64,000 bases of DNA, from assembly GCF_053078305.1 (NCBI RefSeq), contig NZ_CP166879.1; one strand, written 5' to 3'. Both the position numbers and the translations under genes were made by a program. Each line of letters begins with the position of its first letter. Within the stretch, counting starts at the first letter, position 1. The notes beneath the pieces were generated by a model. The model was not told where the DNA came from. It made no database searches and saw only the letters and a list, made by a program, of their open reading frames with translations. Shown in pieces: positions 26,695 through 28,355 of this stretch.

Positions 26695-27126
26695 TTGAAA
26701 CAGATCGCTTTCTACAGGCGTTCTGGAAGGCCCGGTGCCTTCCGTGGGTTAAAAGAGCGCGTCACCTGGATGATTCAGTCTCGTGGTCGTCCTGTTACTG
26801 GCAGTGAAATAGCAGAGAAATTTGGTGTTTCACTTTGCGAGTTCAACAAGGTAGCTCGCGGCCTGACAAAGGGCAGTAAGGTTGTGAAAATAAAGGCTTC
26901 AGAACCATTCACCACAGACACCGGAATCGTTGATCGCTTTTTCTCCCTCGAATCAAATCCTCGTCGTGATACACCTCGCTCACGCAATGCCGTTCCTCCA
27001 TTCAGTCGCAGAAGCCGTGAACACGCAGCAAAAAACTGCCGCGAGGAATACGAGCAAAAGGCCAAACGCCGTCGCCGACTGATTAAAGCAGGACTTTACA
27101 TTGATGAGTTTGAAAACGCGCTATGA
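26695..27126 (+). CDS. Hypothetical basic protein with HTH-like segment (TTG start in ORF track)
   Basis: 143 aa; VTGSEIAEKFGVSLCEFNKVARGL; RBS ggag upstream of TTG 26695; overlaps the methylase start. Confidence 0.4.
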   Translation: MKQIAFYRRSGRPGAFRGLKERVTWMIQSRGRPVTGSEIAEKFGVSLCEFNKVARGLTKGSKVVKIKASEPFTTDTGIVDRFFSLESNPRRDTPRSRNAVPPFSRRSREHAAKNCREEYEQKAKRRRRLIKAGLYIDEFENAL

Positions 27127-27749
27127 CGAAAAAATACACCCTCATTTACGCAGATCCACCATGGACATTCCGCGACAAAGCAACCGATGGTCAACGCGGT
27201 GCAAGTTTTAAATATCCGGTCATGAACCTTCTCGATATCTGCCGCCTCCCGGTATGGGAACTGGCAGCCGATAATTGCCTGTTGGCTATGTGGTGGGTGC
27301 CTACACAACCACTTGAAGCATTGAAGGTTGTAGAAGCGTGGGGCTTTCGTCTGGTGACGATGAAAGGATTAACCTGGAACAAATGCGGGAAAAGACAGAC
27401 CGACAAGCTGGTCATGGGTATGGGTAGCACCACTCGCGCTAACAGCGAAGACTGCCTTTTTGCAGTGAAAGGAAATCTGCCCGAACGCATTAACGCCGGA
27501 ATAATCCAGTCATTCACTGCACCACGCCTTGATCACTCCCGCAAGCCGGATATGGCTCGAGAAAAACTTGTGCAACTTCTTGGCGATGTTCCCCGGATAG
27601 AACTGTTCGCCCGCCACACCTCGCATGGATTTGATGTATGGGGTAACCAATGCGGCACACCATCCATTGAGATGGTTCCGGGTATTGTTAAATTTCTGGA
27701 GAAAACCAATGAGCGAAAAAACGACGTTGACAAAGGCATCACCAGTTGA
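27123..27749 (+). CDS. MT-A70 family N6-adenine DNA methyltransferase
   Basis: 208 aa; LIYADPPW catalytic DPPW motif near N-terminus. Confidence 0.8.
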   Translation: MTKKYTLIYADPPWTFRDKATDGQRGASFKYPVMNLLDICRLPVWELAADNCLLAMWWVPTQPLEALKVVEAWGFRLVTMKGLTWNKCGKRQTDKLVMGMGSTTRANSEDCLFAVKGNLPERINAGIIQSFTAPRLDHSRKPDMAREKLVQLLGDVPRIELFARHTSHGFDVWGNQCGTPSIEMVPGIVKFLEKTNERKNDVDKGITS

Positions 27750-27921
27750 ATTAAGGCAGTGTCTGGAAATCGCAAATCAACTTGCCAGAAGTGGAATACG
27801 ATTTGTTCCAATCCCGATTACAGCAGATGCAGAACTTCATCTGTTTGGTGAAATTCTTTCCCGAAAGCTGGATGAACTGGAAAAGCTGGTAGAAGAAGCT
27901 GACACCTCACTAACCGTATAA
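27709..27921 (+). CDS. Hypothetical small protein
   Basis: 70 aa from MSEKTTLTKASPVELRQ with RBS ggag; overlaps methylase 3' end. Confidence 0.35.
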   Translation: MSEKTTLTKASPVELRQCLEIANQLARSGIRFVPIPITADAELHLFGEILSRKLDELEKLVEEADTSLTV

Positions 27922-27956
27922 CAGCCCCACCGACATTAAAATATCAGGAGAAAAAA

Positions 27957-28355
27957 ATGAACGCAGTGCTCACAGAATTGAACAAATTAGGAAAAGCATC
28001 AGCCGAAAGTATTTCTAAAGGTCTCAATATTGATTTGAATGACGTTATTGACACTCTATGGAAGTTAAAAAACCAGGGGGTAGTAACTGTAAAAAATGGC
28101 ATCTGGCAGGCAGTTGCAAGGGAAGTGGACAAAAAACCAAATATCGCCCCAGTGCAGCCAGTGCAGCCAGTGCAGCCAGTGCAGCCAGTGCAGCCAGTGC
28201 AGCCAGTGCAGCACAACATTATAGGTGACCTGCTACGTAAATCACGGAAAGAAGCGCGCCGCGCCGGGCGGAAACAGAAACGATGGGAGGGTGCATGTAA
28301 GGCGTTGCAAGAACTGAATAAATACCGTGACTTGATCAACGAATTGTCAGAGTGA
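27957..28355 (+). CDS. Hypothetical protein containing a (Pro-Val-Gln)x7 tandem repeat
   Basis: 132 aa; RBS aggag; perfect 9-bp repeats at 28149-28211. Confidence 0.5.
   Translation: MNAVLTELNKLGKASAESISKGLNIDLNDVIDTLWKLKNQGVVTVKNGIWQAVAREVDKKPNIAPVQPVQPVQPVQPVQPVQPVQHNIIGDLLRKSRKEARRAGRKQKRWEGACKALQELNKYRDLINELSE
28149..28211 (+). repeat. Seven perfect tandem copies of 9-bp unit ccagtgcag
   Basis: Directly visible in sequence; in frame within ORF 27957..28355. Confidence 0.95.

Follow-up and report, generated by a model that had tools for sequence, protein, structure and literature searches.

The PNB-2/MT-A70 gene pair of a Shiga toxin-converting prophage matches the published two-subunit methyltransferase of phage PA8

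The DNA stretch considered here (the window) comprises 64,000 nucleotides of contig NZ_CP166879.1 from RefSeq assembly GCF_053078305.1, and the locus of interest is an accessory block at 26695-28355 that encodes an adenine methyltransferase of the MT-A70 family and its upstream partner, PNB-2. The methylase start codon overlaps the PNB-2 stop codon TGA in an ATGA at 27123-27126. Both genes have close counterparts in PA8, a Shiga toxin (Stx) phage of the Stx2a type: the methylase is identical at 207 of 208 residues to gp5 (M.EcoPA8orf6770P) and PNB-2 at 141 of 143 to gp6, and open reading frames (ORFs) of the window share length and order with gp5, gp6 and gp7 (PNB-1). With both genes near-identical, adjoining, overlapping and 3' of the terminator of the antirepressor gene ant, comparison of the sequences identifies the pair as the already known two-subunit enzyme of Stx phages.

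As in the locus of the PA8 holoenzyme, the genes follow in the same order, overlap by 4 nt and have upstream of them a terminator and an Ant-like gene, "PNB-1", and positions 26642-26683 are identical to the terminator sequence printed in the description of that enzyme (Gong, Chakraborty and Koudelka, NAR 2023; PMC10810198). The proteins differ from their PA8 counterparts by N35S in the methylase and by E120V and K124E in PNB-2, and a DUF1627 gene downstream carries seven PVQ repeats in the window but one in PA8. The remaining prophage of the window is a mosaic that differs from PA8 in its Dam insertion and in having HicB instead of a restriction-modification (RM) system.

In PA8, insertion of IS629 in gp5 results in less spontaneous induction and less killing of amoebae, a defect that is rescued by wild-type gp5 but not by a mutant in which DPPW is changed to APPA (PMC10810198). 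The PNB-2 and methylase genes are co-expressed, the methylase is recovered in pull-downs with His-tagged PNB-2, and cross-linking joins the two at a 1:1 ratio (PMC10810198). Purified without its partner, the methylase has an activity close to background on RNA and on DNA, including dam- and dam-/dcm- DNA. With RNA the complex consumes S-adenosylmethionine (SAM) >13-fold better than it does with DNA (PMC10810198). The best substrate of the complex was 16S ribosomal RNA (rRNA), preferably within 30S subunits, and its RNA preference varied with RNA source (PMC10810198). PNB-1 is neither co-expressed with the methylase nor part of the enzyme (PMC10810198).

The locus is widespread among related phages. 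By megablast, 196 phage records contain the 2.2-kb region with 98-99% identity, nearly all of them Stx-converting and including P13374, the Stx2a phage of the Escherichia coli O104:H4 outbreak strain, whose methylase shares 99% identity with that of the window. PNB-2 and methylase DNA is present in 257 of 5426 complete E. coli genomes (~5%).

The Pfam match of the methylase spans the whole PF05063 model (positions 1-172 of 172, E 7.2e-23), in agreement with precomputed Pfam assignments of its homologues. The catalytic motif lies near the N terminus, ahead of the SAM-binding region (the permuted beta order), and residues 3-172 align with the catalytic domains of MTA1 and METTL3. From its 99.5%-identical PA8 counterpart, the protein is predicted to be a SAM-dependent N6-adenine methyltransferase. 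It has no NCBIfam match and does not belong to the alpha-class Dam family (TIGR00571/PF02086); the enzyme may be called "Dam-like" in a functional sense only, by analogy with the activity reported for relatives. Among the ORFs scanned this is the only MT-A70 gene, and no second, catalytically eroded MT-A70 paralogue was found. The nonspecific adenine methylases of O104:H4 prophages, M.EcoGI and M.EcoGII, were ruled out as its identity, being 349-aa DPPY enzymes of another family. Nearest among solved structures by sequence is Tetrahymena MTA1 (7f4r, E 2e-12), followed by METTL3 (E 4e-5); since METTL3 lies far behind this DNA enzyme, similarity to METTL3 is no argument for an RNA substrate.

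PNB-2 is matched over residues 1-143 by the profile phrog_1680 (model positions 1-141 of 141) and is strongly basic, with an isoelectric point of 10.8 and 33 arginine and lysine residues. Its first 25 residues (M1, Y7, R8, R9, G18, E21 and W25) are kept across 17 homologues with identities as low as 30%, and this conservation of the N terminus indicates that the TTG at 26695 is the true start. RefSeq lets the P13374 orthologue start at an internal ATG, with a length of 118 aa (3172-3528 of the compared P13374 stretch); alignment of the homologues points to this annotation being too short and to the 143-aa product being real.

An AlphaFold2 model of PNB-2, built on the alignment of the 17 homologues, has a mean predicted local distance difference test score (pLDDT) of 70 and a predicted template modelling score of 0.35. 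The core, which is winged-helix-like and spans residues 19-85, reaches a pLDDT of 82-87 and is composed of helices 19-30, 36-43 and 47-58 and strands 66-68 and 83-85; beyond it the model has a disordered arginine-rich linker and then a C-terminal basic helix carrying the invariant residues A123, R125, R126, L129, I130 and Y135. Foldseek returned no significant match for this model (E ≥ 0.05), and the top matches at that level were all winged-helix proteins (DnaD-N, MarR/ZitR, TFE, PefI and LexA). The modelled fold class thus agrees weakly with that published (PMC10810198).

Three short ORFs and a repeat-bearing gene follow the methylase gene. The first, a 70-aa ORF, overlaps the final 41 nt of the methylase gene, and a homologue likewise comes after the methylase gene of O157 typing phage 9. 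The 132-aa DUF1627-type protein, whose P13374 orthologue carries the same name in RefSeq, has an N-terminal winged helix-turn-helix (wHTH)-like domain with weak matches to Csa3-type helix-turn-helix (HTH) models, the PVQ repeat and a basic C terminus. PVQ copies number two in P13374, and the repeat could serve as a variable-number tandem repeat marker for Stx phages. The start of the next gene is uncertain: a 77-aa form from the ATG at 28500 is possible, and phrog_1001 covers only residues 50-123.

A sequence-only reading of this stretch had recognized an MT-A70 methylase with a DPPW motif, translationally coupled to a basic HTH-like protein upstream, followed by small ORFs and a repeat protein, and close to int. 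These points are borne out by the Pfam match, the ATGA overlap, the 70-aa ORF, the seven PVQ repeats and the position ~1 kb upstream of xis and int. For the HTH, Pfam gives a weak match of PNB-2 to HTH_11 only (E 0.006).

The surroundings are those of a Stx-converting lambdoid (Sepvirinae-type) prophage in wrbA, the WrbA frame resuming at 30661, right after int. The prophage genes mapped by PHROG profiles (Table 1), together with the position of int and wrbA, place the block at the int-proximal end of the early-left region. NinG, NinB, primase and helicase were also mapped in the window, and RecT, exonuclease and single-stranded DNA-binding protein lie on its + strand. The int gene has the same length in P13374 (1311 nt). 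Two terminator-like hairpins flank a chain of overlapping or closely spaced ORFs. Upstream of the first, the isrK-like RNA, C4 RNA, ant and the terminator form what resembles, by analogy, the c4/ant arrangement of phage P1 immI, a module separate from the methylase genes. The ant product matches PA8 gp7 in length and position, and its place in this module fits the published exclusion of PNB-1 from the enzyme. Read-through from the c4/ant unit could explain why the methylase operon is weakly expressed in lysogens.

Table 1. Features of the window that bear on the PNB-2/MT-A70 locus and its prophage
Feature	Position	Strand	Evidence or detail
Dam-family (alpha-class, DPPY) adenine methyltransferase, unrelated to the MT-A70 gene	391-1158	-	TIGR00571, 115.2 bits vs 114.85 cut-off
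Shiga toxin subunit A	6696-7652	-	PHROG scan
Q antiterminator	8149-8682	-	PHROG scan
cI	13468-14226	+	PHROG scan
isrK-like small RNA	25728-25801	+	Rfam RF01394, 53 bits vs gathering score 50
C4 antisense RNA	25827-25910	+	Rfam RF01695, 70.1 bits vs gathering score 45, E 1.4e-12
Ant-type antirepressor, "PNB-1" equivalent (PA8 gp7)	25963-26640	+	phrog_1760 anti-repressor, E 2e-121
Intrinsic terminator between ant and PNB-2	26654-26676	+	Terminator scan; hairpin CCCCGAC-ATCCC-GTCGGGG (26654-26672) and T tract
PNB-2, basic partner, 143 aa	26695-27126	+	TTG start; Shine-Dalgarno GGAG at 26684-26687, seven bases upstream
MT-A70 (beta-class) N6-adenine methyltransferase (predicted), 208 aa	27123-27749	+	Pfam PF05063, E 7e-23
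Catalytic DPPW (motif IV) codons, residues 11-14	27153-27164	+	Read from the sequence
70-aa ORF, named DUF1382 by the Prokaryotic Genome Annotation Pipeline (PGAP)	27709-27921	+	phrog_292, E 1.5e-29
DUF1627-type protein, 132 aa	27957-28355	+	phrog_1888, E 1.9e-75
Perfect 9-bp tandem repeat CCAGTGCAG x 7.1, encoding PVQ	28149-28212	+	Tandem Repeats Finder score 128, 100% matches
ORF	28352-28732	+	phrog_29320, E 9e-88 (long form); GTGA overlap with preceding gene
83-aa ORF, DUF4222-type, last of the block	28720-28971	+	phrog_285, E 3e-35
Second terminator-like hairpin, at the end of the block and ahead of xis	28973-28990	+	Terminator scan; 7-bp stem, then TTTTTCTT
Excisionase (xis)	29002-29301	+	phrog_539, E 8e-37
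Tyrosine integrase (int)	29354-30664	+	ORF list; ATG 29354, frame open from GTG 29330; runs into truncated wrbA

Other accessory genes distinguish this prophage. Two adjoining ORFs at 25045-25658 on the - strand (102 and 101 aa) resemble a HigB/HigA toxin-antitoxin pair, and a HigA antitoxin is annotated in the corresponding region of PA8. Next to cI is a gene for a HicB-like antitoxin (14633-14977, - strand), at the spot where P13374 has a PstI-like RM pair, so that one accessory cargo has been exchanged for another. No complete RefSeq E. coli genome (n = 5426) covers more than 84% of positions 22000-34000 in one place, and the prophage is a mosaic without such a counterpart among them.

The gene at 391-1158 had been read as a second methylase, of the Dam family, and this is upheld by its TIGR00571 score, which is just above the cut-off, and by its DPPY motif. 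Against the equivalog model for E. coli Dam the protein falls far short (score 72 vs 441), and its best phage homologue, in Klebsiella phage KP12, has 57.6% amino acid identity. The gene lies within a ~1-kb insertion (381-1414) between ant and Rz of the lysis cassette; none of the Stx phages in the phage collection, P13374 included, carries it, and it occurs in this context in only four of the 5426 complete E. coli genomes. It is a genuine Dam-family member but a rare insertion and not the usual Dam of Stx phages.

The absence of a cognate restriction endonuclease, also proposed from the letters, was confirmed for both methylases: none lies beside either of them according to PHROGs, PADLOC or the PGAP annotation of an identical region. 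Neighbors of the MT-A70 gene match only phage families of unassigned function, Ant, xis and int, and no endonuclease models in PADLOC. Nor is one hidden beyond the window edge in the identical E. coli region, where Rz and terminase come after the Dam-family gene. The TTG start of PNB-2, the absent restriction partner and the comparative context of the partners, given below, are the additions to the published description (PMC10810198).

PNB-2 homologues were found in 137 phage records. Pairing with MT-A70 recurs in a second clade, represented by Klebsiella phage RothC and HK639, in which the methylase is only 44% identical to that of the window. In RothC (MT-A70 44% and PNB-2 53% identical) the two genes have the same 4-nt, ATGA-type overlap, and in HK639 a 55-aa ORF lies between them. 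Elsewhere the PNB-2 family keeps other company. In Enterobacter phage CobraSix (NC_071003.1, 28469-30962) a homologue with 53% identity is followed by a small ORF and then by a 637-aa fusion of C5-cytosine and Dam (PF05869) methylases, and the homologues of SopranoGao, phiEt88, vB_EhrS_59 and AH07 (36-43% identical) have no methylase within 1.8 kb downstream. The PNB-2 family is thus not tied to MT-A70 enzymes alone.

The partners of MT-A70 genes are equally varied. The coupled upstream gene encodes an 83-aa PerC-like protein in O157 typing phage 9 (MT-A70 82% identical), a 75-aa wHTH protein in Tyrion (73%) and a 79-aa DUF4060 protein in Pocitis76 (65%); in Serratia phage BZS1 (38%) a 60-aa ANR-like regulator is adjacent, with a 2-nt gap. 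In P0068 and P0034 (73-78%) the gene stands alone, at other genome positions. A coupled upstream wHTH protein as a universal companion of phage MT-A70 genes was therefore ruled out. Because close relatives carry other neighbors or none, the catalytic domain is probably autonomous in most phages, and PNB-2 pairing is a clade-specific addition, albeit one that recurs in two diverged methylase lineages. No PNB-2-MT-A70 gene fusions were found when these were sought as evidence of interaction; the search yielded only a rare PerC-MT-A70 fusion (three members, possibly a frameshift) and C-terminal extensions.

It is fairly probable that the published model of a two-subunit, rRNA-directed PNB-2/M.EcoPA8orf6770P enzyme holds for the window pair, for which, by analogy with PA8, a 1:1 complex preferring 16S rRNA or 30S subunits would be expected. 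The 208-aa methylase would be a minimal catalytic domain without a target recognition domain of its own, and PNB-2, with its wHTH and arginine-rich segments, would supply the targeting to nucleic acid. When abundant in vivo, the catalytic subunit alone may retain the Dam-like GATC activity on DNA that is documented for an orthologue and relatives. If the catalytic subunit is active alone, PNB-2 would redirect or broaden its substrate range toward 16S rRNA rather than create activity. Methylation of 16S rRNA may then alter translation in a way that favors induction.

Several observations weigh against this model. No MT-A70 enzyme is known to act on rRNA. The closest solved relative by sequence is the ciliate N6-methyladenine (6mA) DNA enzyme MTA1 and not METTL3. 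The catalytic subunit appears to need no partner in P0068 and P0034, and PNB-2 homologues stand beside an unrelated C5 plus Dam fusion or have no methylase within 1.8 kb downstream. The claim for rRNA derives from a colorimetric assay of SAM consumption, and the modified base is unmapped according to the authors (PMC10810198). M.EcoGV, described as highly similar to M.EcoPA8orf6770P (PMC10810198), is cited as methylating GATC in vivo when overexpressed without PNB-2 in a dam- host (PMC10810198, PMC6602927). M.EcoGV comes from E. coli O104:H4 C227-11 (Fang et al. 2012), and its equation with the MT-A70 enzyme of the window type rests on the citing papers; it fits the gene content of P13374, which has only two methylase genes, that of the PstI-like RM system and MT-A70. 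The MT-A70 protein of BZS1 (p32), alone in a dam- host, made a plasmid resistant to MboI and sensitive to DpnI (PMC7556043), and M.EfaBMDam of Tn1549 is cited there as GATC specific (Radlinska 2005, as cited in PMC7556043).

These data lead to an alternative that makes the MT-A70 protein a solitary beta-class DNA methyltransferase, with Dam-like methylation of GATC, during lytic growth or at a low level in lysogens, as its relevant activity. It would protect against GATC-cutting restriction, keep pace with rapid phage replication or tune Dam-sensitive promoters of lysogeny, and PNB-2 would bind DNA as a helper or regulator, with the in vitro preference for RNA being secondary. This is possible but doubtful. 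The GATC activities of M.EcoGV, of M.EfaBMDam (both as cited) and of p32, which is 74% identical to the methylase of HK639, a phage with a PNB-2 homologue, all argue for it, as does the match to a REBASE-derived PADLOC profile of type II methyltransferases (E 7.5e-86). The nearest solved relative being a DNA 6mA enzyme, the bona fide DNA methylase downstream of the CobraSix PNB-2 homologue, the MT-A70 gene of Klebsiella phages, which adjoins cytosine methylases, and partner-less relatives, which imply that the catalytic domain can act alone, are in line with it. Nevertheless, the purified PA8 methylase was at background on dam- and dam-/dcm- DNA, the holoenzyme preferred RNA >13-fold, and the prophage already has a separate Dam-family gene. 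Furthermore, the methylomes of lysogens show methylation of GATC and CTGCAG only, and the host methylates 99.9% of GATC sites (PMC6602927), so that a lysogen gains no new mark. Because host Dam already fully methylates GATC, comparison of lysogen methylomes, the refutation test proposed with the sequence-only reading, is uninformative.

Two further alternatives concern the neighbors of the methylase gene. PNB-2 could merely be a transcriptional regulator, similar to a C protein or an early-operon DNA-binding protein, and not a functional subunit; its wHTH-like fold, the annotation of several records as "regulatory protein" or "regulator" and the 36-43% identical homologues without an adjacent methylase point in that direction, and the ATGA overlap alone proves little, since overlapping small genes are usual in phage early operons. 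This explanation is nonetheless very improbable, given that the methylase copurifies with His-tagged PNB-2 in dependence on the presence of the methylase gene, that the two cross-link 1:1, that substrate preference shifts in the complex only and that adjacency is retained in the second clade after the methylase has diverged to 44% identity. Survival of the methylase as half of an RM system, with its endonuclease nearby or decayed, is scarcely credible. Related Stx phages such as P13374 do have a complete PstI-like RM pair, but elsewhere, beside cI, where the window holds the HicB-like gene. PHROGs and PADLOC gave no match to endonuclease families in 24000-31500 or around 391-1158, the neighbors are conserved small phage proteins and the same arrangement without an endonuclease is present in the 196 phage records.

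GATC is less frequent in the prophage (1-30660; observed/expected ratio, 0.72) than in the flanking chromosome (30661-64000; 1.05), and depletion is deepest at 1-8000 (0.46) and 16000-24000 (0.33). This frequency does not discriminate among the methylase hypotheses.

The GATC and rRNA findings would be reconciled if PNB-2 were a portable substrate-switching adaptor, with the MT-A70 protein methylating GATC in DNA when alone and being redirected to GAUC in 16S rRNA when bound by PNB-2. As a whole this is an unlikely proposition. In the rrn operon of E. coli O157:H7, 16S rRNA (2498-4038 of the compared stretch) contains five GAUC sites, with 5.7 expected, and 23S rRNA (4485-7382), which is nearly twice as long, has four, with 10.7 expected; it is speculative that these counts fit the reported preference for 16S rRNA. 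The last GAUC of 16S rRNA directly precedes the anti-Shine-Dalgarno sequence (...GGAUCACCUCCUUA-3'). If GATC specificity were kept on RNA, this site, accessible in the 30S subunit and well placed to change translation initiation, would be a candidate target, again speculatively.

The sequence-only reading had regarded the MT-A70 protein as an orphan DNA methylase with anti-restriction or epigenetic functions. Its orphan status, in the sense of lacking a restriction endonuclease, stands, and the GATC activity on DNA that it assumed is plausible by analogy with the orthologue and relatives. The functional part fares less well: the upstream protein is a subunit of the enzyme, the reported target is 16S rRNA and the phenotype is one of prophage induction (PMC10810198). 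The locus is a rediscovery, and its remaining value lies in the conflict between methylation of GATC in DNA and of 16S rRNA. It ties a phage methyltransferase to the frequency of Stx prophage induction and hence to toxin output and to virulence in Shiga toxin-producing E. coli. If the rRNA target is true, this would be the first MT-A70 enzyme to act on rRNA and, according to its discoverers, the first prophage-encoded RNA methyltransferase (PMC10810198).

Known MT-A70 systems share parts of this arrangement. BZS1 p32 and M.EfaBMDam share the Pfam family of the window enzyme and resemble it in size, and p32 occupies the same int-proximal position, but BZS1 has no PNB-2 homologue, its upstream gene being the ANR-family regulator. 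The ciliate complex MTA1c (MTA1/MTA9 with the DNA-binding proteins p1 and p2) likewise has a DPPW MT-A70 subunit that relies on separate small DNA-binding subunits (PMC7544214). It differs in requiring a second, catalytically dead MT-A70 paralogue, which the window lacks, in having accessory proteins that are homeobox-like and not winged-helix, and in its substrate, ApT in double-stranded DNA, with no activity on RNA. METTL3-METTL14 has the MT-A70 fold with DPPW, is active solely as a heteromer and uses RNA as its main substrate and single-stranded DNA in addition. Its sequence relation to the window enzyme is far weaker, its partner is an MT-A70 paralogue and the zinc fingers that bind RNA are fused to the enzyme, whereas the wHTH protein of the window is separate. 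Under the adaptor proposal, phage MT-A70 enzymes may be modular pairs of an enzyme and a small wHTH protein, and thereby the prokaryotic equivalent or precursor of eukaryotic MT-A70 complexes with separate nucleic acid-binding subunits.

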